From Alphaproteobacteria bacterium (lineage in GTDB: Bacteria > Pseudomonadota > Alphaproteobacteria > Bin95): 64,000 bases of DNA. A model generated the notes under the pieces. That model made no database searches. It was not told the origin of the DNA and worked only from the letters and a program-made list of their open reading frames with translations. This document shows positions 2,206-63,168 of the stretch, in pieces. The position numbers and the translations under genes were made by a program. The stretch covers positions 32,001 through 96,000 of the forward strand of contig CAXXWS020000001.1 in assembly GCA_963665325.3 (NCBI GenBank). Reading direction: 5' to 3'. Numbering within the stretch: the first letter of the stretch is position 1; every line of letters starts with the position of its first letter.

Positions 2206-3675
2206 ATGATGGATATCGAGGCCTTTGTGCAACAGGACGGCCGCGACGAATTGGTCAGGCGGGTGCGCGAGATGATCGACGAGAAGGGGGTCCAGTACCT
2301 GTATCTCCAGTTCGTGTCGATCACCGGCCGGATATGCGGCAAGGGCATTCCGGCGGACCACTGGGAAACGGTGGCCGAACGAGGCTTCCAGCTGGTCTAC
2401 GGCGCGACCGTCAACCTGTTCCTGAACAGACATGGCGAATATCTGGGCTATGGACCGCAGGAAAAGGAGCTGGTCGGCATTCCGGAGCCCGAAACATTCT
2501 GCCAGCTGGCCTGGGACAAGCGGGTCGCCCGGATCTGGTGCACCCTGTTTCGCAACCGGGAAGAACGTGAGAATCCCGGCGCCTTCCTGACCTCCGACGG
2601 CCGCGGCAATTTGCGCCGCATCCACGCGCAATTCCAAGAAGACCATGACGGCCTGCATCTGCGCCACGGCACCGAGCCGGAGATGATGTGGCTGAAACGG
2701 GACGAGGACGGCAAGCCCGACGGCGGCTTCTCCAAGCCCTATTGCTACCATATCGACCAGTTCGAGAGCCTGCGTCCCGTCTATATGCGGGTGATCGAAT
2801 ATTCGCGGGCGATGGGACTGGACATGATCCAGGGGGATCACGAGGACGCGCCCGGCCAGCTCGAACTCAACTTCACCTTCGACGACGCGCTGCGCACCGC
2901 CGACCGGCTGACGACCTACCGCCAGATCTGCGCCCAGGTCGCACGCGAGTTCAACCTGATCGCCTGCTTCATGACGAAGCCGTTCATGGGCGTGTCGGCT
3001 TCGGGTTGCCACCACAATATTTCGCTGTGGCGCGGCGGCGAGGAGGTGGTGAAGCCCCTCGGCAACGATCCGTTGCCGGGCATGGAGAACAATTTTACCT
3101 ATCTGAGGGGCGGCGAGAACACCTTCATGCCCGATACCGACGATGTGCAGCTGCCCGGCAAGGTGGGCCTGCAGGTGGTCGGCGGCATCGTCAAGCATCT
3201 GGGCGCGCTGACGGCTATCGGCGCATCCACCGTCAACTCCTATCGCCGGCTATGGGATACCGGCTTCTGGGCGCCGGTCTTCGCGGACTGGGGCTACCAG
3301 AACCGCACGACCGGGCTGCGCATATCCGCGCCGGGCCGCTTCGAATACCGGTCGGTGGATTCGATGGTAAACCCGTATCTGATGGCAGGCGCGATCCTCA
3401 AGGCGGCCGATGACGGCATCAATAACGACATCGACCCGGGCCCGCCGGAAGACCGCAACATTTACCAGGCCATGGAGGCCGGCAAGCAGGTCAAGAAACT
3501 GCCCATGACGCTCGGCGCCGCACTGGATGCGCTTGCCGAGGACGAGGTGATCCAGTCCGCCATGCCGGGCGACATGTACCGCCTGTACGAGGAGTACAAG
3601 CGGGACGAGTGGGAGCGTTTCCTGCACACCACGACCGAGTGGGACATGGACACCTATCTGAATTGCCTGCCTTAG
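2206..3675 (+). CDS. gmaS: Gamma-glutamylmethylamide synthetase (glutamine synthetase family)
   Basis: GS motifs GTEPEM, HEDAPGQLELNF, KPFMGVSASGCHHNISLW, NRT, FEYRSVD; first gene of an operon with mgsABC. Confidence 0.85.
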   Translation: MMDIEAFVQQDGRDELVRRVREMIDEKGVQYLYLQFVSITGRICGKGIPADHWETVAERGFQLVYGATVNLFLNRHGEYLGYGPQEKELVGIPEPETFCQLAWDKRVARIWCTLFRNREERENPGAFLTSDGRGNLRRIHAQFQEDHDGLHLRHGTEPEMMWLKRDEDGKPDGGFSKPYCYHIDQFESLRPVYMRVIEYSRAMGLDMIQGDHEDAPGQLELNFTFDDALRTADRLTTYRQICAQVAREFNLIACFMTKPFMGVSASGCHHNISLWRGGEEVVKPLGNDPLPGMENNFTYLRGGENTFMPDTDDVQLPGKVGLQVVGGIVKHLGALTAIGASTVNSYRRLWDTGFWAPVFADWGYQNRTTGLRISAPGRFEYRSVDSMVNPYLMAGAILKAADDGINNDIDPGPPEDRNIYQAMEAGKQVKKLPMTLGAALDALAEDEVIQSAMPGDMYRLYEEYKRDEWERFLHTTTEWDMDTYLNCLP

Positions 3676-3703
3676 GGTCAGCGCTGGAAGGGAGAGACAT
3701 TCT

Positions 3704-4639
3704 ATGTGCGGTATTGCAGGACTGATCTACCGCGATGGCGCCCGCAATATCGGCGGGGAAATGACCGCCATGCTGCAGGCGCTGAAGCATCGCGGCCCGG
3801 ATTCGACCGGGTTCGCGGTCTATGGCGAGCCCGGACCGAACGAGTACATCTTGCGGTTCAAGGTGGCCGAGCAGGAAGACTTGGGCCGCGGGAGGAAAAT
3901 CCGCCGGGCGATCGCCGAACGTAAGGCGGCGGTCGACGAGTTGCTGGAGGAACTCGGCGTAGCCGTCCTCGATTTGGACGGGCCGACGGAATATGCGAGC
4001 CGTTATCGCATCTCCTACGACGGCGACATGAAGGACCTTGCCGACCAGATGGAGGAGATCGAGGGTACGGAGATCCTGTCGATCGGCAACGCCCTGGAAC
4101 TGGTCAAGGATCTGGGCGACGCGGCCGACGTGTCCGGCGCTTACGACCTCGGCGGGTTCAGGGGAACTCACGGCATCGGCCATACGAGGATGGCCACCGA
4201 GTCGGATGTCGATATTCGTTCCGCCCACCCTTACTGGGCCTATCCGTATAACGACATCGCGGTCGTCCACAACGGCCAGATCACCAACTACTGGCTGATG
4301 CGCCGGCAGCTCGAGCGCAGCGGACAGCGCTTCGTCAGCAACTGCGATTCGGAACTTCTGGCGGTCTACACTGCGGTCAATCTCGAAAGGGGCATGACCC
4401 TGGAGGACTCCCTTCAGAGGTCGATCCACGAGATCGACGGGGTATTCACCTATCTGATCACCACGCGGAACGAACTCGGCATGGCCAAGGACACCATGGC
4501 CGCGAAGCCGATGGTTCTCTACGAGGCGGATGACATGGTGGCGCTGGCTTCCGAGGAAGTCGCGATCAGGGCGATCATCCCGCACGAGATCGACACCACC
4601 GACCCGTATGACGAGGAGGTCCGGGTATGGCAGGCGTGA
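3704..4639 (+). CDS. mgsA: N-methylglutamate synthase subunit A (class II glutamine amidotransferase)
   Basis: MCGIAG Ntn start, HRGPDSTG, GHTRMATES, VHNGQITN, DSE. Confidence 0.85.
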   Translation: MCGIAGLIYRDGARNIGGEMTAMLQALKHRGPDSTGFAVYGEPGPNEYILRFKVAEQEDLGRGRKIRRAIAERKAAVDELLEELGVAVLDLDGPTEYASRYRISYDGDMKDLADQMEEIEGTEILSIGNALELVKDLGDAADVSGAYDLGGFRGTHGIGHTRMATESDVDIRSAHPYWAYPYNDIAVVHNGQITNYWLMRRQLERSGQRFVSNCDSELLAVYTAVNLERGMTLEDSLQRSIHEIDGVFTYLITTRNELGMAKDTMAAKPMVLYEADDMVALASEEVAIRAIIPHEIDTTDPYDEEVRVWQA

Positions 4640-54021: not shown

Positions 54022-54276
54022 ATGGTCGCGACGTTCGTCGAGCTCCGTTCCTCCGCGGTGACGGTGTCCTATTTCGAGCGGGACGGCTACTACGCGAGGA
54101 ACGACCCGGAGCACCGGCAGGCGAGTTTCTGGCACGGGGGCGCGGCGCAGGCGCTGGGGCTCGGGGGCCATGTGCGCCCGAAGCGGTTCGAGTCGGTTCT
54201 GGCGGGGTTCGTGCCGGGGACGGACATCCGGCTCGGTCGGATGCGCGAGGGCGAGCGCGTTCACCGGCCCGGCTGG
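54022..54276 (+). pseudogene. MOBF (TrwC/TraI-like) relaxase, N-terminal 85 aa, cut off by a transposon
   Basis: Catalytic Tyr motif YFERDGYY, WHG..A.ALGL.G, HRPGW; the stop TGA is supplied by the transposon end. Confidence 0.9.
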
Positions 54277-54522
54277 TGAGTGTGCTCTCGGTATCTGATG
54301 GCGGGATGGTCACGTTGTTCGATGGTTTTCAGGCGTCGGGCCGGGCGTGACGGCGGGGGTGTCGGACGGCCGTCGGCGCGTCAAGCCGCTTCGCGGCTCC
54401 TGCGCTGCGCTCCGGCCCTTCGGGTGACCCGCCGCCGTCCCTCCGACGGAGTGCATCCATGGCCGTAAGCAAGCTTCCGGCCACGGGCCGGCCGCTTTAC
54501 GCAGTGTGACAATGGGAGCGGT

Positions 54523-54583
54523 GTTACCCGTTACCGTTACCCTCTCTCCCTAGGGGTTCGAGGCGGTAACGGTTTTCGGTAAC
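54523..54583. repeat. GTTACC x3 direct and GGTAAC x2 inverted repeats (iteron-like)
   Basis: GTTACC 54523, 54530, 54536; GGTAAC 54565, 54578; central CCCTAGGG palindrome contains the helicase stop. Confidence 0.7.
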
Positions 54584-55548
54584 GTGTCCCTGCGGTCGTT
54601 GCCGTTGAGGGCGGCGAGGCGGTATCCGCCTTCGGATGCGCGCTCGACGCGTCCTTCGCGGACGAGCCTGTGCAGCGCCTCGGCGACGGTTGCGGGCCGG
54701 GTTGCCGCGCGCTCGCGGATCCGGCGCTGGGAGAGCGGCGCGTCGGCGTCGGCGAGGGCCTGCAGGATGCGCCGTTCGGGGGTATCCGGCTCCGGCGCCT
54801 GGTCTTCCGGCGTCTCGCGCAACCGCAGGGCGGGGCGCTCGTCGTCGTCGGCGAGTTCGATCTCGAGGTCTTCGAGGCCAGGGGCGTCGCGATGCTCGAC
54901 GGTCATGAGGATCTGGCGGTCTCGCCGGCGCAGGTACAGATTCGAATCGCCCCAGGCGTGAAGTTCGCTGCTGCCGCGCAGCGCCTGCCCGGGCCGGGAG
55001 CCGCCGCTCTTTCGTGCGTGATGGACGAGGAGGACGGCGGTTTCGAAGCGGCGCTGTATGTCGCGCAGGAAGCCCAGCATGGGGGCGACCTCGGCGACGG
55101 TATTTTCGTCGACGCCGTGCAGGCGCACGAGGGGGTCGAGGACGACGAGGCGGGGTGAGACGCGCTCCACCGTCTCGACCAGGCGCTGGCGATCGGCGCG
55201 ATGGTCGAGACGCAGCGTGGGCACGTCGATGACGGCGATGTCGAGGGTCTCGAACGCGGTGCCTGCCGCCTTTGCGATGCCCTGGAGGCGTGCGCGCACG
55301 ATATGGCCGGCGTCCTCGGCGGCGAACAGCAGCACGGGGCCGCTTGCGGCGGGACGGAAGTGGCGCAGGCAGGGGACGCCGGCGGCGACCGCGACGGCGA
55401 TGTCGAGTGCGAGGAAGGATTTGCCGCACTTGGGCTCGCCGCCGACGATGCCGACGCCCTGCTCGGACCACAACGCCTCGACCATCCAGCGGCGCGCCTG
55501 GGGGCGCTCTTCGAGCTCCGCCGGCGCCCGTGTCGGGAAGCCCTTCAC
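54550..55548 (-). CDS. AAA_25 / RSF1010 RepA-like RecA-fold (SF4-type) ATPase/helicase with C-terminal wHTH
   Basis: Walker A GGEPKCGKS, AAED, LVVLDPL, DEN, LLVHHARK, LRGSS; C-terminal LSQRRIRERAATRPATVAEALHRLVREGRV; GTGA overlap with the ATPase. Confidence 0.85.
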   Translation of the reverse strand: MKGFPTRAPAELEERPQARRWMVEALWSEQGVGIVGGEPKCGKSFLALDIAVAVAAGVPCLRHFRPAASGPVLLFAAEDAGHIVRARLQGIAKAAGTAFETLDIAVIDVPTLRLDHRADRQRLVETVERVSPRLVVLDPLVRLHGVDENTVAEVAPMLGFLRDIQRRFETAVLLVHHARKSGGSRPGQALRGSSELHAWGDSNLYLRRRDRQILMTVEHRDAPGLEDLEIELADDDERPALRLRETPEDQAPEPDTPERRILQALADADAPLSQRRIRERAATRPATVAEALHRLVREGRVERASEGGYRLAALNGNDRRDTLPKTVTASNP

Positions 55549-56378
55549 CGCCGCGCCCTCCTCGGCTTGGCGGGTTCGCCCAGGGTCTCGATGAAGAGCT
55601 TCTCGTCGAGGACCTCGCGCTCCTTCTCGGCGGCGGCGGCGAGCAGGGCGTCGGCCATGACGGTGAGCGCCCGCGGGTTGCCGTCGGCATGGGCGACCAG
55701 GGTGTCCTTGAGGCCCGCGGTCATGAGGCCGGGATTGCCGGCCTGCTCGATCAGATGGTCGAGCAGGGCCGCGAGGTCGCCGGCCTCGGCCTTGGTCATG
55801 ACCAGGCGCTGGCGGATGCGCGAGGCGATGGGCTGCAGATCGGGCTGGCGGAGCTTGTCGAGCAGGCGCGTGTCGCCGGCGAGGACGACCGAGAGGATGG
55901 CGCGCGAGTCGAAGTCGGTCGAAGCCAGCAGGCGGATCTCGGAGAACACCGAGGGCAGCAGCTCCTGGGCCTCGTCGACGAGCACGACGGGGCGCATGCG
56001 GGTATCGTCGACATGGGCGAGCCAGCGCTCGCGCAGGCTTTTGAAGCTGGCCCAGCGGTTGTTGTACATCAGGTCGACGCCGAACATCTCGCCGATCTCG
56101 CGGTAGAAGTCGGACAGCCGGGAGGAGGGATGGGTGATGGCGGCGATGCTGAGCCCCTCGCAGCGGCCGAGACGGTCGGCGAGCAGGCGCAACGCCACAC
56201 TCTTTCCGGCGCCGGGCTCGCCGGCGATCAAGGCGAAGCCGCCCTGGCGCACCAGGTGGCGCTCGATCCTGAGGCAGAAGCTGTCGACGGCAGGCGTCGC
56301 CATGAGACTGTCGACCGGCAGGTCGGTGGCGAAGGGGTTCCACTTGAGCCCGTAGAAGGTGAGCAGTTCCCGGTTCAT
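55545..56378 (-). CDS. ExeA-like AAA+ transposition ATPase
   Basis: FYGLKWNPF, GEPGAGKS, LVDEAQEL, VVLAG, IASRI, GNPR; ATGA overlap with the transposase. Confidence 0.88.
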   Translation of the reverse strand: MNRELLTFYGLKWNPFATDLPVDSLMATPAVDSFCLRIERHLVRQGGFALIAGEPGAGKSVALRLLADRLGRCEGLSIAAITHPSSRLSDFYREIGEMFGVDLMYNNRWASFKSLRERWLAHVDDTRMRPVVLVDEAQELLPSVFSEIRLLASTDFDSRAILSVVLAGDTRLLDKLRQPDLQPIASRIRQRLVMTKAEAGDLAALLDHLIEQAGNPGLMTAGLKDTLVAHADGNPRALTVMADALLAAAAEKEREVLDEKLFIETLGEPAKPRRARR

Positions 56379-57850
56379 GGCGCATCTCCCCGATCTTCGT
56401 CCTCGCCCGGACCGGGCGTCTTGTCATGGGGCAGCCAGGCCGGCGGCAGGCCGGTTGCGGCCTGGGCGTCGAGCATGCCCTTGAGCAGCGGCGGAAGTTC
56501 CCCCGTCCCCGCGCCGCCATTGCCATCGTTGCCGCCGGGGCCGGCGGGACGGCGCACGCCATCGGCGTTGCCGCGCTTGTCGAGGGGGTACAGCGTGCAC
56601 AGGCGCTCGCCGCCTCGACCGTCGATCAGATCGACGCTGGCGAGGTTCCAGCGCGCGTAACGGATCCAGGCCTCGCGCAGGTGGCGCCACGGCTGTGGCA
56701 CCTGGTAGCGGATGCCCTCGACCGAGACGGTGCCGTCCGAGCGCCTGAGCGTGCGCTTCCTGGTGATGCGGAAGGCCGCCTTGAGCTCGGCCGAGCCGGG
56801 GCAGGATCTCGACGCGTCGACGCTCCCGGCCAGGCGTTGATGCGGCGTCATGCCGAGCTCGCGGTGCTTGCGGCGGTGATAGTCCTGCTCCAGCCAGGCG
56901 ATGGTGGCGTCGTTGAGCATCTTCAAGGTAAGCGCGTCGACGCCTTCGAGCTGAGCCATCAGGCGCGATTCGACCGTGCCCCAGAACGACTCGATCTTGC
57001 CGTTCTGATGGGGGCTGTAAGCGAGCGTCGTGACCCCCGCGATGCCGAGCCGGTGCAACCCCTCCTCGACCTCGCCCGCGGTCATCGCCGCGCCGTTGTC
57101 GGTCAGCAGGGACCTCGGCAGACCGCGCTTCATGAAGGCCTGGCAAAGGCCGTGGACGAACACCTCGGCGGTCTCGGCGAGGTACCACTGAAGGTGGCAG
57201 CCGAGGCGCGAGTGGTCGTCGAGGAAGCCGAGCAGGATCGGCGTCTTCCACTCGCCCGAGGCGGTCAGCACGCGACGCTTGGCGCTGTGCATGTCGGCGT
57301 GCCACAGGGCGTGAGAGCGCGAGACCTCGTAGCTCAATACCTCGCGGGCTTCGACCGCCGGCCTGGCCTCGCTCTCATGCCACTTGCGCCGGCGCTTGCG
57401 TACCAGCCCGCGAGCCCGCATCGCCCGGGTCAGCGTCGCGTAGGACGGTATCGGGCCGAGCTCGGGATCGGCCTCGACCCGCGCGGCCAGATTCTCGTGA
57501 TGAAGCTGCGCCGACCACGACGGATGCGCCCGGTACTGCTCGTGCAGCGCCTCGATCAGCGTCGGCGACATCGCGCGCGGGCGCCCGGCATCGGCGCGCG
57601 GGCGCCGCTTGAGCGCCCCCACCGGATCGTTGTCCGCCGCCCGCGCCTGGTAGTACCAGCGCTCGATCGTGGACACCGCGAAGCGCACCCGGCCCTTGCC
57701 GGACGGGTGATCCCACTCGCGTTCGGCAAGCCGCTCAAGCTCGGCGTGCAGCCGCCCCGCCGGCGGCGGCGAGGCCAGAAGCGGCCCGACCACCGCGAAG
57801 CGCAACCGCGCCCACCGGTCGCGACGCTCGCTCCCGTCGTTGCTGTTCAT
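56375..57850 (-). CDS. DDE integrase/transposase (rve core, N-terminal HTH, Mu-like C-terminus)
   Basis: STIERW HTH, WHAD, DDHSR, TDNG, NGKIE, DGTVSVEG.RYQVP. Confidence 0.93.
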   Translation of the reverse strand: MNSNDGSERRDRWARLRFAVVGPLLASPPPAGRLHAELERLAEREWDHPSGKGRVRFAVSTIERWYYQARAADNDPVGALKRRPRADAGRPRAMSPTLIEALHEQYRAHPSWSAQLHHENLAARVEADPELGPIPSYATLTRAMRARGLVRKRRRKWHESEARPAVEAREVLSYEVSRSHALWHADMHSAKRRVLTASGEWKTPILLGFLDDHSRLGCHLQWYLAETAEVFVHGLCQAFMKRGLPRSLLTDNGAAMTAGEVEEGLHRLGIAGVTTLAYSPHQNGKIESFWGTVESRLMAQLEGVDALTLKMLNDATIAWLEQDYHRRKHRELGMTPHQRLAGSVDASRSCPGSAELKAAFRITRKRTLRRSDGTVSVEGIRYQVPQPWRHLREAWIRYARWNLASVDLIDGRGGERLCTLYPLDKRGNADGVRRPAGPGGNDGNGGAGTGELPPLLKGMLDAQAATGLPPAWLPHDKTPGPGEDEDRGDAP

Positions 57851-57898
57851 TCCGGCATCCCCCTCGCTGCTTCGTGGAGGTGCCGATGATGCGGTGCC

Positions 57899-58513
57899 CT
57901 ATCCGTGCATCATAGAAACGCTTTCTGCGGGCGAAGCCGGACCTGCGCCGAGCGCGCAAAAGCCGGTCCACGGCATCAGCCAGACCAGGCTCCGCAGCAG
58001 CCGCGAGCGGAAGCCACGGCCCCGCATGATGCGCAGCAGCCGGCGCAGCGGCGCCTCTTCGGGCGGCGCCGCCAGCTCGCCCCGTCTCGCCTGCCACTCC
58101 CGGGTCAGCGGGAAGGCTTCCAGCCACCAGCGCCGCCAGCGCTTCAGCGTCGAGGCCGGAACCCCGCACCGCCGCGCGATCGTCTGCAACCGCGCGCCGC
58201 CGGCCACAGCCAGCGCACTCACCACAAGGAACAGCGCCCCGACGTAAAAGCGCCTGCCGAAGAAACGCACCGACGGCGGCTTCACGCGGCGTCGGCACAC
58301 CGAACAGCACAGGCTGAAGCGCCGAACGTCGTTCCGAAGATTCGCCGCCAGACCGTGCGGCTTGCGCGGGTAGCTCGCGCTGTGAAGCGCGCCGCCGCAG
58401 CGCGGGCAACCCGCCGCCCGGCACGCCTCCGCCTCGGCCGCGTCGACCTGCTTCAGAAAATCCCAAACCCGGGCGTTGGAGAGATTGGAGTGCCGGAACA
58501 GCTTGTGCGACAT
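57899..58513 (-). CDS. Zn-ribbon + HTH transposon accessory protein
   Basis: CPRCGG...CCSVCRRR, then HTH ARRCGVPASTLKRWRRWW; first gene inside the right end. Confidence 0.75.
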   Translation of the reverse strand: MSHKLFRHSNLSNARVWDFLKQVDAAEAEACRAAGCPRCGGALHSASYPRKPHGLAANLRNDVRRFSLCCSVCRRRVKPPSVRFFGRRFYVGALFLVVSALAVAGGARLQTIARRCGVPASTLKRWRRWWLEAFPLTREWQARRGELAAPPEEAPLRRLLRIMRGRGFRSRLLRSLVWLMPWTGFCALGAGPASPAESVSMMHG

Positions 58514-58660
58514 TGGGGCCGTCTCAGGTTGATGTCACTGTCACCGAGACAAGCCCTCCGGCGGCCTTCTTGCAAGATCGCCGGGGGGCACCCAATCCAA
58601 AACCTCGATTAATCCGAGCCGATCAGCCCCTGATCGCCGCTGAAAGCCTGCGCCCGCTCA

Positions 58661-61600
58661 ACTGGGACCTCACCTTCTCGGCGCCGAAGTCTGTGTCGAT
58701 CGAGGCGCTGGTGATGGGCGACCGGCGGGTGATCCGGGCGCATGACGAGGCAGTGCGCGCGACGCTCGACTGGGTGGAACGGGACCTGTTGCAGACGCGG
58801 GGGTGGGATGCGGTGACGCGGCGGCGCCCGCGGGTGAAGGCCGGCGGCATGGTCGCGGCCGGGTTCCGGCACCTGACCAGCCGCGACCGGGACCCGACGC
58901 TGCACACGCACTGCGTGCTGGCCAACATGACGCGCAATGCGGACGGCCAGTGGCGCAGCGTCGAGCCGACGGCCATCAAGTGGAACAAGAAGCTGATCGG
59001 GTCCTATTACCGCAACGAGCTGGCGCGGCGGCTGGAGGCGCTCGGCATGGCGGTCGCGCCGCGGCTGGTCGGACGCATCCCGGGCTTCGAGCTTGCGGGC
59101 TACTCGCGCGACTTCGTCGAGGCGTTCTCGGCCCGGCGGCTGGCGATCGAGGCCGACCTGAAGCGCAACAAGCTGCCATACACGGCGAAGAATGCGCAGG
59201 CGGCGGCGCTGCGCACCCGCAGGCGCAAGAGCGAGGAGAGCCTGGCGGACCTCGTGCCGGAATGGCGCGCGCGGGTCCGCGAGCTGGGCCTCGTGCGCGA
59301 GAAGGCGGCGCTGGCGCCGCCCCGGCCGCTGGACCCGCTGACGGGAGAGCGGACGGCGCGGCCATGCATGCCGGCGCTCGATGCGACGGCGAACGAGCTG
59401 AGGCGGCAGAGGCGCGCGCCGGCCCTGCCGAAGCTGCCGCGCGACGGGGCGGCGGTCCGGGCGGACAAGGCGTCCCTGCGGCTGGCGCGCTCGACGGCGC
59501 GGGCGGAACTCTCATATGGGCCGGCGCCAGGCCTGCTGGAAGTGGTGGCGCGCGCGGTGGCGCATGTCGAGGAACGGCGGGTGCACATCCCGGAGGCGGA
59601 GATAAGGGCCGTCGCGCTCGGCCATGCGCCGGGGCGCTACACGCTGGCAGAGGTCGATACCGCCATCGCACGCCTGGTGCGGAGCGGCGAGCTGGTCGAG
59701 ACCGAGAGCCGGGGCGCGGACCGGGCCTTCGTCACCGACCGCGCCGTGAAGACCGAGCGGCGCATGCTGGCGGCGATGCGCGCGGAGTGCGGCAGGGGAA
59801 CGGCGCAGGCGGAGGCGGTCGCGGTCGAGGCGCGGCTTCGGCAAAGCGGCCTCACAAGCGGCCAGCAGCAGGCGGTCCGCGCGATCCTGCTCTCCCGCGA
59901 CCGTATCGTCGGCGTGCAGGGCCATGCCGGCAGCGGCAAGACCACCATGCTGCGCACGGTTAAGGAGTTGCTGGACGGCAGGACGATCATGGGCCTTGCG
60001 CCCTCGGCGTCGGCGGCCAGGGTTCTGGCAAGGGAGGCGGACATCCCGTCCCGGACACTGCAATGGTTCCTCACCCGCCACGGGGACCTATCCGATCCCG
60101 CGCGGCTCGCCCGGGCGCGGGCCGAGTTCGGGCGCGCGGTGCTGGCGGTGGATGAGGCCTCGATGATCGACACGGTGCGCATGGAGGCGCTGCTCCGGAT
60201 CGCGCGCAATCTCGGCGTGGCCCGCATTGTCCTTGTCGGCGACACGGCGCAGCTGCGCGCCGTCGATGCGGGCCAGCCCTTCCGGGTGCTGCAGAAGGCC
60301 GGCATGGCGACGGCGGTCATGGACGAGGTGCTGCGCCAGAAGGACCCGGAACTGAAGACGGCGGCGGGCCGCGCCCGGGAAGGCGAGCCGGGGGCGGCGA
60401 TCCGGGAACTCGGCCCGCGTGTGCATGAACATTCCCGCGAGGAGCTCGGCCCGGATGCGGGCCGGCGCTGGCTGGCGCTATCGCCGGAGGAGCGCGCCGA
60501 CGCCCTCATCCTGGCGCCGACCCATGCGATCCGCCGGCAGGTGAACGAGACCGTGCGCGAGGGGCTGGAGGCGGAGGGGCTGCTGCACGGGCGCGCGCTG
60601 GCGATCGACCGCCTTGTGGACCGCCGCCTGACGCGCGCGCAGGCCTCCGACATACGCAGCTACGAGCCGGGCGACACGGTGGTCTTCCATCGTGATGTGT
60701 TCGGCTGCCGGGCGGGCGACGTCTGCATGGTGACGGGCAAGGATGAGGGGCATGTGGCGATGGCCGGTCCGGACGGCGGCGAGCGCCGGTTCCGGCCCTC
60801 GGGCAATGCGGCGGCATATCTCGGGCTCTACGACACCGAGCGGATCGAGGTCATGACGGGCGACCGTATCCGCTGGACCCGCAACCGCAAGGCGCCGCCC
60901 GCAAGGTTCGGCCACCCGCGCCAGCCGGACCTGGTAAACGGCGGCGAGGCGGAGATCGTGGAGATTGACCGCCAGCGGGTGCTGTTCCGCGACGATGCGG
61001 GGCGGACGTTCCCGCTCCGGCGCAAGGACCCCCAGCTTCGCCACCTGGACCACGCGTATTGCTCCACCGTGCATGGCGCGCAGGGCCGCACCGCGCGCGC
61101 CGTCATCGCGGTGCTGGACGCGCATGGCGCCGTCGACCAGGCGATGTTCCATGTCGAGGTCAGCCGGGCCTCGGAGTCGTTCCAGCTGCTGACCGACGAC
61201 CGCGAGGCGCTGGTGGAGATGCTGGAGGCGCGCCCCGACCGCGAGGACGGCGCGCTGGAGGCGCTGGGCCTCGACCCGGCCGCGCTTCCCGTCGTCGAGC
61301 CGGAACTGTTCGAGGCGCTGGCGGCGGACTGGCGCACCCTGCAACGGCAGGGCGAGGAGACGGATACGCCGCCGTTCCTGCTTCCGGGCGCAGACGAGGT
61401 CATGGCGCGCGCGGTCGCGCTCTCCCTCGTCGAGGACCTGCCGGCGGACATGCGGGTATTCCTCGACGGCATGCTGAATGAACACGAACGGCATATCGCG
61501 CATGAGCAGGAGGTGCGGGGCCTGGCCGACCGCCTCCGCGCGCACTGGCGGCGCTGGCCGGAACTCGGCTGGATCGCCTCGGCGCGGGGCTGCGCGCGGC

Positions 61601-63168
61601 AGGACCTGCCGGAACGTGCGGCGTGGCGCGAGGAAGGCGAGGCGCTGCTGGACGAGGCATGCGGCCTGGACGTGATACCGGACATTGCCGCCGGGCTTGA
61701 AGGCGAGATGGCGGCGGTGGAGCGCATGCGGCTGCGTGACGATGCCGAACGATTCCGGCGCGACCGGACGGCGCTCGGCGCGGGCGCCGTCCGCGAGGGC
61801 GTGCCGGAGCTGCATATGGAGGGCTGCGCCGAACTTGCCGCACTGGCCGGACGGCTCGCGCAAGCCGAGGGCCTCGACCCGGCCGACCGGCGCCTGGTGG
61901 ACGAGTGGCTGACGGTCCATGACAGGCAGACGGCGCTTGCCGGTGCGGTCCGCTCGCTGCCGAGCCGGGCGGAGGCATGGCGGGCGCGCAGGGAGACGGA
62001 CCTGCCGCTTGACAGGCATGGCGGGGCCGACCCGGTCGATCCCGCCTGCCGCGCCTGGCGCGAGGAGGGCGAGGCGCTCCGGGAAGAGGCCGCCGGCATG
62101 TTGGAGGGGACAAGCCCGCACGGTCCTCACATGGGCGCCGTGCCGGGAGCACGGGAGGCGGTCGCCGCGGCGCTGGCGGAGATCGACGCCGCGGTCTTCG
62201 AGGACCGCTTTCAGCGGTTCGCCTGGCTGACGCGGCATATCACCGGCCAGGCGAAGGAGGCAGGAACCGTATGGTACTATGCGCCCCGCTACCCGGAGAC
62301 GGTCGCCCATGTCCGTTCGCTCTTCGGGGAAGAAAGCCTCGATGAAGACCGGAGGCGGGCCGTCGGAGACTGGCTCCGGTATGACGACCGGTGCGAACGG
62401 CTCCGCCGGGAGATCCGGGACTGGCCGGCGCGCGCCGATGCGCTCCTCGGCGAGCGGCCCGGGCCGGGGAAGGACCTGGGGCCGATGCGGCGCTGGCGCG
62501 CCAGGGCGGAGCCGATGCTGACCGAGGGCCGCGCGATGCAGGCGAAGGAAAGCCCGCATGCGCCCCACCTTGCCGCCATGCCGGACGAATGCAGGGCGCT
62601 GGCCGAAACGGCCGGCCGGCTCGAAAACGCACTGGCCGAAATCGAGACGGCGGAGGTCGACCGCCTTCTGAAGATTGCCGGACTGGCCTCCGAACGGACC
62701 GGCGGCATCGCGTCCGACACGGCCGAACATGCCGATCCGACGCGACACGAGCGCCTGGCAAGGGACCGGGCCCGCGTCGAGGCGTTCCTCGATCTGGCGC
62801 GCAAGCAGCTGGACGAGCGCGACCGCATGGACGGCCTTCCTCGCGAGGTCCGGGCGATGGCGGGGCTGCCGCTCACGCCGGAGGCATGGAAGCAGGACGC
62901 CGATGCGGTGCTTGCCGAGGCAAACGCGCTCGGGCGGGACATCCCGGCGGGGGAACTCAAGGCCCATCTCGCCGCCGCCGGCGCCGGGCCCGATGCGATC
63001 GATGAGAATGCCGCGAAAATTGCCGAACGGCTGCGCGAGGACGAGGAAGCCCGTGCCGCCGAGCGGCAACGGCAGGCGGAGCAACAGGCGCAGGCCCGGG
63101 AGGCCGAACGCCTGAAGCTCGAAGAGGAACGGGAACAGAGCGAGGGCGGCGGGATGTCGATGTCGTAG
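58661..63168 (+). pseudogene. MOBF relaxase-helicase, C-terminal ~1500 aa (lacks the catalytic Tyr segment)
   Basis: DLTFSAPKSVS, AHDEAV, HUH motif HLTSRDRDPTLHTH, GFEL, FSAR; RecD-like helicase GHAGSGKTT, VDEASM, GDTAQL, HAYCSTVHGAQGRT; long helical tail ending EGGGMSMS. Confidence 0.9.

Follow-up and report, generated by a model that had tools for sequence, protein, structure and literature searches.

The 64,000-nucleotide window analysed here (assembly GCA_963665325.3 of an alphaproteobacterium, contig CAXXWS020000001.1, positions 32,001 to 96,000) carries a 4384-bp transposon which, next to its transposition genes, encodes a RepA-like AAA_25 helicase with a C-terminal winged helix-turn-helix (wHTH). 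The helicase gene, an iteron-like repeat and a structured block of ~140 nt form a compact replication-type module at the right end of the element. We consider the chances about even (probability near 0.5) that this origin-plus-helicase module promotes replication of the element itself. The architecture of the transposon, its mobility, the conservation of the module, one transfer of the module between transposon lineages, and co-variation both between iteron and recognition helix and within the block were established in this work. Judged by its proteins, the element is a member of the Tn6049 transposon group. Coordinates are those of the window unless a contig or locus is named; the genome to which the window belongs (own genome) consists of five contigs (C1-C5) with a total of 5.58 Mb. 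The features of the element are as follows.

54277..58660, minus strand: whole transposon, 4384 bp, TG...CA ends, with identical ends in 24 own-genome copies
58514..58660, minus strand: left end (in gene orientation), terminal TGAGCGGGCGC... and a 147-nt leader before orf1
57899..58513, minus strand: orf1, 204 aa, four-cysteine zinc ribbon and helix-turn-helix (HTH; Pfam HTH_23)
56375..57850, minus strand: DDE transposase, 491 aa, HTH_32 and rve (Pfam), Mu/IS481-like
55545..56378, minus strand: AAA_22 (GspA/ExeA-like) ATPase, 277 aa (Pfam AAA_22, E 5e-20)
54550..55548, minus strand: RepA-like AAA_25 helicase with C-terminal wHTH, 332 aa, GTG start (Pfam)
54523..54583, no strand assigned: iteron-like inverted repeat at the helicase stop codon, GTTACC units facing GGTAAC (x3), centre CCCTAGGG (repeat search)
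about 54340..54500, minus strand: structured non-coding block, ~140 nt (consensus fold of 15 sequences)
54277..54339, minus strand: right end (in gene orientation), ...CCATCAGATACCGAGAGCACACTCA

The minus strand carries all four genes, in the order orf1, DDE transposase, AAA_22 ATPase and AAA_25-wHTH. The initial annotation, made from the letters of the window alone, had read this operon as genes for a zinc-ribbon/HTH protein, a DDE transposase, an ExeA-like ATPase and an AAA_25-wHTH protein, the last three coupled by 4-bp overlaps, and this description was correct (ATGA between transposase and ATPase, GTGA between ATPase and helicase; the gap from orf1 to the transposase gene is 48 nt). The fourth protein matched AAA_25 (PF13481) with an E-value of 5.5e-36 and 124.5 bits against a cut-off of 27, and wHTH families also matched in Pfam. 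Its sole sequence match in PDB was RepA of RSF1010 (1g8y, E 2.4e-8), in agreement with the kinship proposed earlier. An AlphaFold2 (AF2) model from a 28-sequence alignment (mean predicted local distance difference test score, pLDDT, 74) contained a RecA-like core, and residues 257-311 were modelled as a three-helix winged HTH. In Foldseek, RepA entries had the top target-normalised template modelling scores (0.63-0.68; 0.68 for 1g8y, with a root-mean-square deviation of 3.0). Walker A (GGEPKCGKS), Walker B (LDP), the HHARK motif and the GQALRGSSELHAWGDS stretch were invariant or nearly so in the 28 sequences. The PHROG matches were helicase parts of phage primase-helicases and DnaB-like helicases, and no PADLOC match was found for the protein. 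We infer that the AAA_25 protein has helicase activity and that its wHTH binds DNA. Median dN/dS values (nonsynonymous over synonymous substitution rates) over 21 pairs were 0.28 for the helicase, 0.34 for the transposase, 0.34 for the ATPase and 0.36 for orf1; purifying selection on the helicase is thus at least as strong as on the core genes.

To describe the occurrence of the helicase, we scanned one genome per prokaryotic species. The scan gave 140 loci, and the counts below refer to the best 80 of them, which came from 17 assemblies (Pseudomonadota 12, Chloroflexota 3, Actinomycetota 1, Acidobacteriota 1). The four-gene arrangement recurred across genomes: the helicase directly followed an AAA_22 ATPase gene in 80 of 80 loci, and a DDE transposase gene preceded the ATPase in 78, the other two loci ending at contig starts. 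Among these best 80 of 140 loci, the helicase subfamily was met only inside such transposons, and many of the genomes had dozens of copies each. Public data contained at least 120 protein clusters with 72-100% identity to the helicase. Of 400 other genomes drawn at random from the same class, a single one (G283) passed E <= 1e-20, with a helicase of 45% identity located where its contig ends; this occurrence was too sparse for a synteny comparison. The plasmid collection PLSDB gave no DNA match to the element, and the helicase relatives found there, in 4 records, had at most 30.5% identity.

The 80 loci belonged to two kinds of transposon, for which we coined the labels class A and class B. 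In class A (47 loci), orf1, transposase and ATPase were 62-91% identical to those of the window (ATPase 71-91%), and the ends were TGAG...CTCA. Class B (33 loci) had its own 214-aa orf1, its own ATPase, a transposase with Mu-transpos_C, and TGTTGTC...GACAACA ends. Compared with the window, the class B transposase and ATPase were only 26-29% identical, whereas the helicase was 72-80% identical. Target duplications were similar in size: of 27 class A copies, 15 had duplications of 5 bp, 11 of 4 bp and 1 of 3 bp, and of 14 class B copies, 8 had duplications of 4 bp, 4 of 5 bp and 1 of 6 bp, while 1 had none. In a helicase tree of 35 sequences (quick IQ-TREE), the 10 class B representatives formed one clade (support 98), which was nested in the class A clade of the window (support 100, 23 sequences). 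Therefore, the module moved once between two very different transposons, and it entered the same position. One alphaproteobacterial assembly (contigs CBDEUT0100000xx, loci L019-L098) accounted for 28 class A and 18 class B loci of the 80, so that both lineages expanded side by side in one genome.

The sequences downstream of the helicase gene were conserved together with it. In relatives, the iteron-like repeat was located around or just past the helicase stop codon, and its arms consisted of two or three tandem 6-7-mers. The arms changed together between elements (GGTAAC, GGAAAC, GGGAAC or GGAACC), and residue 285 of the wHTH, the first of the predicted recognition helix, varied with them: it was P with GGTAAC (4 of 4 sequences), N with GGGAAC (5 of 5), A with GGAAAC (3 of 3, one of them from a distant clade) and H with GGAACC (6 of 7). 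This pattern, which comes from few independent lineages, fits a wHTH that would read the iteron-like repeats.

The structured block was common to class A and class B, and its 15 distinct versions had a mean column identity of 80%. The predicted fold consists of a 12-bp hairpin followed by a long stem of ~18 bp, which encloses three mini-hairpins with GNA triloops (CCC-GAA-GGG, GC-GNA-GC and AGCCGC-GNA-GCGGCT). The consensus has 48 pairs with 97.1% of cells paired. It contained 8 compensated pairs, compared with 3.1 +/- 1.1 in shuffled alignments (none of 500 reached 8) and 1-2 in slid controls. On the gene strand we counted 29 G.U cells and not a single A.C cell, and therefore it is the sense strand of the block that folds. 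Rfam gave no match at E <= 1 on either strand over 54200-58750. In single-strand origins, GNA triloops whose middle base varies form DNA mini-hairpins of very high stability, and for this reason we favour a DNA signal. In three DNA sequencing runs, contigs were 1.5-2.2 times as deep over the block (54330-54482) as over the remainder of the element, which suggests extra block copies elsewhere in the sequenced genomes. At one locus with a solitary block, L086, the block is just 3' of a RecD-like helicase gene (AAA_30, UvrD_C_2, SH3_13); near it are an SSB-like open reading frame (ORF) and a HigA-like ORF, both candidates named by eye from translations.

In eight related loci (L047, L049, L055, L059, L076, L079, L090 and L098), the place of the block after the helicase was taken by a 289-aa DUF3991-Toprim_2 gene. 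The sequence shared by L079, L090 and L098 continued past the Toprim gene to the ...GCGCACGCTCA end and defined a five-gene element of ~5.2 kb. L049 (Chloroflexota; L049:2493-4166) had ~700 nt of differing sequence after the helicase, perhaps with a small ORF, then a partial block and right-end-like sequence at 3204-3235, and then the Toprim gene at 3309-4166; the locus is perhaps nested or composite. As for the termini, the left end was kept at 84-91% in L051, L059, L079, L090 and L076, and the terminal 20-32 nt of the right end were kept in L019 and L049.

The mobility of the element was evident in the own genome. A DNA search and blastn detected 24 copies, all of which started at the base corresponding to 54277 (TGAGTG...) and ended at that corresponding to 58660 (...GCTCA). 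The sharply delimited 4384-bp TG...CA element with weak terminal inverted repeats, as originally described, was thereby confirmed; the inverted repeats read TGAGYGKGCKC, with about 8 of 11 bases matching, and the ends are TGAG...CTCA. Across the 4384 bp, 21 of the 24 copies were 100% identical. Two others had one 1-bp gap each (C1:503215-507597, in which the gap breaks the transposase frame, and C3:175650-180032), and one was split by a 2070-bp insertion (C1:2290596-2297053). The inserted segment (C1:2290873-2292942) is 277 bp from the end that matches window position 54277, with a 4-bp overlap of element positions 274-277, and is presumably another insertion sequence (IS). An exact target duplication of 5 bp flanked 10 copies, one of 4 bp flanked 8 and one of 6 bp flanked 2, and 4 copies had no exact duplication. 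Two of these 4, including the window copy (GCTGG/ACTGG), showed a 5-bp repeat with one mismatch. The other two (C2:25283-29666 and C4:930514-934897) were reciprocal hybrids: the left flank on C4 and the right flank on C2 share GGTCG, and the left flank on C2 and the right flank on C4 share CCGT. Such x-IS-y and y-IS-x flanks would be expected if two simple insertions had recombined, or if replicative transposition between the contigs had left a cointegrate unresolved. The copy number of 24, the identity of 21 copies and the 4-5-bp target duplications mark the element as a transposon that is currently active.

Several further observations concern the element in its genome and in sequencing runs. 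Remnants of a diverged relative were located ~6 kb apart on C1: a 44-aa helicase C-terminal fragment with 70% identity (C1:446404-446535) and a 61-nt piece of the block with 89% identity (C1:452288-452348). A repeat search for subterminal transposase-binding repeats gave mainly GC-rich chance pairs, and none was adopted. Contigs of the metatranscriptome run X17 span most of the element at 90-99% likeness; DNA carry-over or relatives could account for them, and expression is not claimed. Runs X8 and X10, labelled sponge metagenome, contained 0.74-0.81 of the sampled words, and no habitat claim is drawn from this.

The copy in the window interrupts a relaxase gene, whose two parts are as follows.

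54022..54276, plus strand: 5' fragment of the interrupted TrwC-type relaxase gene, the target (Pfam TrwC positions 5-76)
58661..63168, plus strand: 3' part of the interrupted relaxase-helicase gene, the target (Pfam TrwC positions 76-285 and AAA_30)

The gene is thus split at position 76 of the TrwC profile, and the relaxase hit reported in the initial annotation was real. The empty-site joint (54272->58662) was present in contigs of all 4 sequencing runs examined, and the uninterrupted relaxase site was found both there and in an own-genome paralogue. The flanks of the relaxase gene match ~10 other places in the own genome at 75-100% identity, including a near-identical uninterrupted paralogue at C5:335949-336110, which suggests a set of relaxase paralogues. 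The earlier idea that the element chooses conjugative DNA was not borne out, however, as only 1 of the 24 copies is in a relaxase gene and the target preference is weak and CC(N)GG-like (51 sites). The copies lie in many different genes on all five contigs, 2 of them on a 196-kb contig. Seven are clustered in 120 kb of C1 (1,982,775-2,101,890) that resemble an integrative and conjugative element (ICE) or plasmid; ISs often pile up in such DNA anyway. The GC skew of this region is unusually strong, reaching 0.17 per 50 kb, and its genes encode a T2SSE/VirB11-type ATPase, DUF7146-Toprim_3, AAA_34 plus Helicase_C_4 (Strawberry-notch-like) and YAcAr proteins. The GC skew of the own-genome contigs was irregular and showed no clear origin or terminus for a comparison of orientations.

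The three genes in front of the helicase have counterparts in known elements. Orf1 matched HTH_23 in Pfam with 27.1 bits (cut-off 24.6, E 3.4e-6), and its cysteines C36, C39, C70 and C73 were invariant in the alignment of relatives. The AF2 model of orf1 (mean pLDDT 61) had no PDB fold match at E <= 0.001; rows with MqsA-like and NudC zinc-ribbon folds had E-values of about 1 and were not used. Orf1 is possibly a DNA-binding accessory protein or regulator. The transposase matched the PHROG family phrog_310 ('transposase') with an E-value of 2.4e-40, and Mu-transpos_C was not among its Pfam matches at E <= 0.01. The ATPase matched phrog_296 ('DNA transposition protein') with an E-value of 1.4e-23; at E <= 0.01 its Pfam match was AAA_22, with no family of the IstB type, and a weak PADLOC match to mads_8 was confined to the P-loop. 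By these similarities it is presumed to be a MuB/TniB-like transposition partner.

The closest annotated relatives of the transposase (50% identity) are on plasmids of Cupriavidus, Pseudomonas and Paraburkholderia. Compared with Tn6049, orf1 was 40% identical (to the 181-aa first gene product, E 2e-29), the transposase 50% across 94% of its length (tblastn) and the GspA ATPase 52% (E 3e-94). The order orf1-transposase-ATPase was the same in L011 and L012, and pMOL30 and pBPHYT01 contain, in this order, a small 'transposase', an 'IS481 family transposase', an 'AAA family ATPase' and a 71-aa hypothetical protein. The initial annotation, which knew of no described IS with this fourth gene, needs a correction as to the core: the first three genes correspond to a transposon that has already been catalogued, Tn6049 of Cupriavidus metallidurans. 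The helicase-bearing form was not found in the literature searched. PMC2864759 describes Tn6049 as a 3.5-kb element with 12 copies in C. metallidurans CH34 that carries 'gspA', and PMC4739549 gives imperfect inverted repeats of 12 bp together with a direct repeat of 4 bp. The two elements share the gene order and three homologous genes, TG...CA ends, short imperfect inverted repeats, duplications of ~4 bp and a multicopy state in the host. Tn6049 is also present on the Pseudomonas aeruginosa plasmid pHS87a and on Paraburkholderia plasmids. However, it differs in length (3.5 kb versus 4384 bp) and in its terminal bases (TGTGC... versus TGAG...), it lacks the helicase, the iteron repeat and the structured block, and its fourth gene is the 71-aa ORF and not a 332-aa AAA_25-wHTH gene. 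This ORF was considered as a wHTH remnant and rejected, having no similarity to the helicase (best E 1.6).

We also scanned metagenome contigs for the ATPase, using an alignment that included Tn6049. The scan gave 560 relatives, and 80 of these (52-61% identical to the window ATPase) were used. The helicase gene (45-66% identity) was directly downstream in 17 of the 80 and absent from 55 that had at least 300 bp of downstream sequence; many of the 55 carry a Tn6049-like small ORF, and the other 8 loci could not be judged. Within the Tn6049 group, helicase divergence (45-66% identity) roughly tracks ATPase divergence (52-61%). In an ATPase tree of 105 sequences (FastTree), the presence of the helicase required at least 5 changes, compared with a mean of 31 for shuffled labels. 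The helicase-bearing elements formed a basal grade, and a 59-sequence clade that contains Tn6049 was helicase-less. The association of helicase and transposon is old, and stable in several sub-lineages.

We propose the following scheme. The transposase and the ATPase would carry out cutting and joining in a Mu/Tn552-like strand transfer; this role is suggested by homology, the TG/CA ends and the 4-5-bp duplications. The helicase would recognise its own iterons via the wHTH, load there and unwind the element. The exposed sense strand would then fold into the hairpin block, which would serve as a priming or loading signal, and some relatives would rely on an encoded Toprim primase instead of the block signal. 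The outcome would be replication of the transposon, either at the strand-transfer/copy-out step or as an excised circle, and without the host helicase-loading system. Such independence from host helicase loaders would fit the occurrence of 70-85%-identical modules in four phyla. A replicative role is plausible, and the iterons, the structured block and the Toprim variants speak for it indirectly. A bolder version of this scheme, which we offer tentatively and regard as somewhat doubtful, is a self-priming, self-unwinding DDE transposon. In such a minimal transposon-replicon hybrid, the wHTH-helicase would be both initiator and helicase, firing an internal iteron origin and exposing a single-stranded hairpin signal, a Toprim primase would replace this signal in the five-gene relatives, and copying during or after transposition would need little help from host initiation factors. 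If true, it would explain the near-identical modules in four phyla as well as the bursts of dozens of copies per genome.

It should be noted, however, that a number of observations weigh against a replication module. The element has no genes for a DNA polymerase, a primase or a separate initiator. When Foldseek matches were ranked by E-value, recombinases of the Rad51/RadA type and DnaB appeared alongside RepA, and the fold alone is no proof of helicase activity. The residue-285 link suffers from its few lineages, and two distant GGAAAC sequences have T or G at this position. The block could be an RNA element (a 3' untranslated region, a stabiliser or a regulator), and it was found once apart from any transposon (L086:1332-1512, minus strand, 79% identical), so it is not confined to these transposons. 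The circle joint (58660->54277) was not seen in contigs of 4 runs (X1, X2, X3 and X17), in which backward joints at depth 2-4 were counted as noise; contigs drop rare forms, so this result carries no weight either way. Of the 72 distant relatives that were judged, 55 had no helicase. The helicase is thus probably accessory and not needed for the basic DDE reaction, because helicase-less members multiply too (Tn6049, with 12 copies in CH34; PMC2864759). This also qualifies the initial annotation, to which the helicase looked like core machinery: it is element-borne, conserved (47 of 47 close relatives and 33 of 33 class B loci, under purifying selection) and not variable cargo, but probably not essential. 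Finally, gain of the helicase and its loss by the Tn6049 clade are indistinguishable in the ATPase tree, which was made with FastTree only, since its root rests on class B, whose helicase came by lateral transfer.

Other functions of the fourth gene have to be weighed against replication. The helicase-wHTH might control or steer transposition. It could bind the repeat near the right end and regulate transposase access, copy number or immunity, or it could act as a target selector encoded by the last gene, like TnsD, TnsE or TniQ, with ATP-driven remodelling of DNA or of the transpososome. Its gene is indeed the last one and adjoins the right end, the repeat with which the wHTH co-varies is ~250 nt away from the terminus, 7 of 24 copies are in one ICE/plasmid-like region of 120 kb with 2 more on the 196-kb contig, and relatives without the helicase still move, as expected for an accessory regulator. 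However, the targets are only weakly CC(N)GG-biased and are spread over many genes and all five contigs, and one helicase type works next to two transposase/ATPase sets that are ~27% identical, which argues against a specific protein partnership. In addition, its relatives by sequence and profile are replicative helicases and primase-helicases, and the Toprim primase of some relatives would be left unexplained. We therefore regard a controlling or steering function as rather unlikely. It appears very improbable that the gene is ordinary cargo that acts at the level of the host or in defence, such as a RecA/KaiC-like anti-phage ATPase, and is unrelated to the life cycle of the element. Transposons often carry cargo at one end, and RecA-fold ATPases are functionally diverse, with Rad51 and RadA high in Foldseek. 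On the other hand, PADLOC found no match, the helicase is confined to transposons (80 of 80 loci) and kept in all 24 own-genome copies, the cis elements co-evolve with it, and these 4.4-kb elements have no other cargo.

An explanation that overlaps with a replicative role is that the module is a hitchhiker. It could be a tiny replicon derived from a plasmid or satellite, made up of an initiator-helicase, iterons and a priming signal, that occupies the one permissive slot of these transposons and travels with them, or the whole could be an integrative mini-plasmid with a borrowed DDE integration module; the helicase would then serve persistence or transfer of the free circle and have no part in transposition itself. 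In line with this, the module passed as a whole from one transposon lineage to another, unrelated one, and the slot after the helicase is variable, holding the structured block, a Toprim gene or other sequence (L049). The block also occurs in a plasmid/ICE-like context, beside SSB and a RecD-like helicase, and near-identical helicases are present in 4 phyla, as would be expected of functions like those of broad-host-range IncQ plasmids. Yet none of the 80 helicase loci was free-standing or on a small circular contig without transposon genes, PLSDB held no close relative (best 30.5% identity), and helicase and ATPase diverge roughly in parallel in the Tn6049 group, as under long co-inheritance. 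A hitchhiking replicon also seems improbable to us, and we continue to prefer a module that replicates the transposon.

The element can be compared with known transposons and replicons. With Mu, Tn552, Tn7 and Tn5053-type transposons it shares a two-protein core, in which a transposase of the rve fold is paired with a P-loop ATPase, as well as TG/CA termini and duplications of ~5 bp. Its transposase and ATPase match A-like and B-like proteins of transposable phages (phrog_310 and phrog_296), and Mu-transpos_C, a domain of Mu-like A/B systems, was found in the class B transposase. In Mu, restart proteins of the host take over the product of strand transfer, and to our knowledge none of Mu, Tn552, Tn7 and the Tn5053-type transposons has been described as encoding a replicative helicase; the element here does so, and some relatives encode a primase as well. 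Among single ISs, IS481 (NF033577) was the best NCBIfam model for the transposase, and RefSeq labels the Tn6049 transposase 'IS481 family', but the score of 123.9 bits is under the 224-bit cut-off and IS481 elements have a single gene instead of four. The pairing of transposase with ATPase resembles IS21; however, the IS21 model (NF033546) gave only 45.1 bits against a cut-off of 160, the ATPase is AAA_22 and not of the IstB type, and the element has four genes.

Among replicons, the nearest comparison is with RSF1010 (IncQ). Its RepA-type helicase is a hexamer that unwinds DNA 5'->3', and its vegetative origin (oriV) contains iterons and ssiA/ssiB, which are used together with the RepB' primase and the RepC initiator. 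The element likewise combines a helicase with short repeats and hairpin-forming DNA, with a primase in some relatives, and its AAA_25 domain has intact Walker A and B motifs, RepA being the nearest RecA-like fold by target-normalised score. It differs from RepA in its low identity (about 20%) and in the fusion of the wHTH to the helicase, without a separate RepC-like initiator. In contrast to an IncQ replicon, it has no primase or initiator gene, has only iteron-like repeats and one structured strand, and resides inside a transposon. The nearest concept in print is the staphylococcal cassette chromosome mec (SCCmec), a large cassette that is moved by serine recombinases and has a helicase of another family, whereas the carrier here is an IS-sized DDE transposon. 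SCCmec resembles the present case as a mobile element with its own helicase and primase: PMC7581432 treats the pair of Cch helicase and CcPol-MP primase as belonging to an integrative element thought to replicate after excision.

In the literature, with ISfinder, TnCentral and the supplements of papers outside the scope of the search, we found no description of a bacterial DDE transposon, Tn6049-like or other, that encodes a RepA-type helicase. Replicative transposition is generally held to rely on the replication-restart machinery of the host. If a widespread group of IS-sized transposons brings along a RepA-like helicase, together with origin-like repeats, a conserved structured strand and in some members a primase, this would represent a novel means of securing transposon replication, and a helicase-bearing transposon would blur the line between transposons and plasmids. 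At 4.4 kb and four genes, the system is tractable for studying how strand-transfer or copy-out intermediates become replication forks. That the module passed between two distant transposon lineages suggests a portable 'replication booster'. In the organism itself the element strongly drives the rearrangement of the genome, with 24 copies, disrupted genes and flanks that are hybrids of different contigs.

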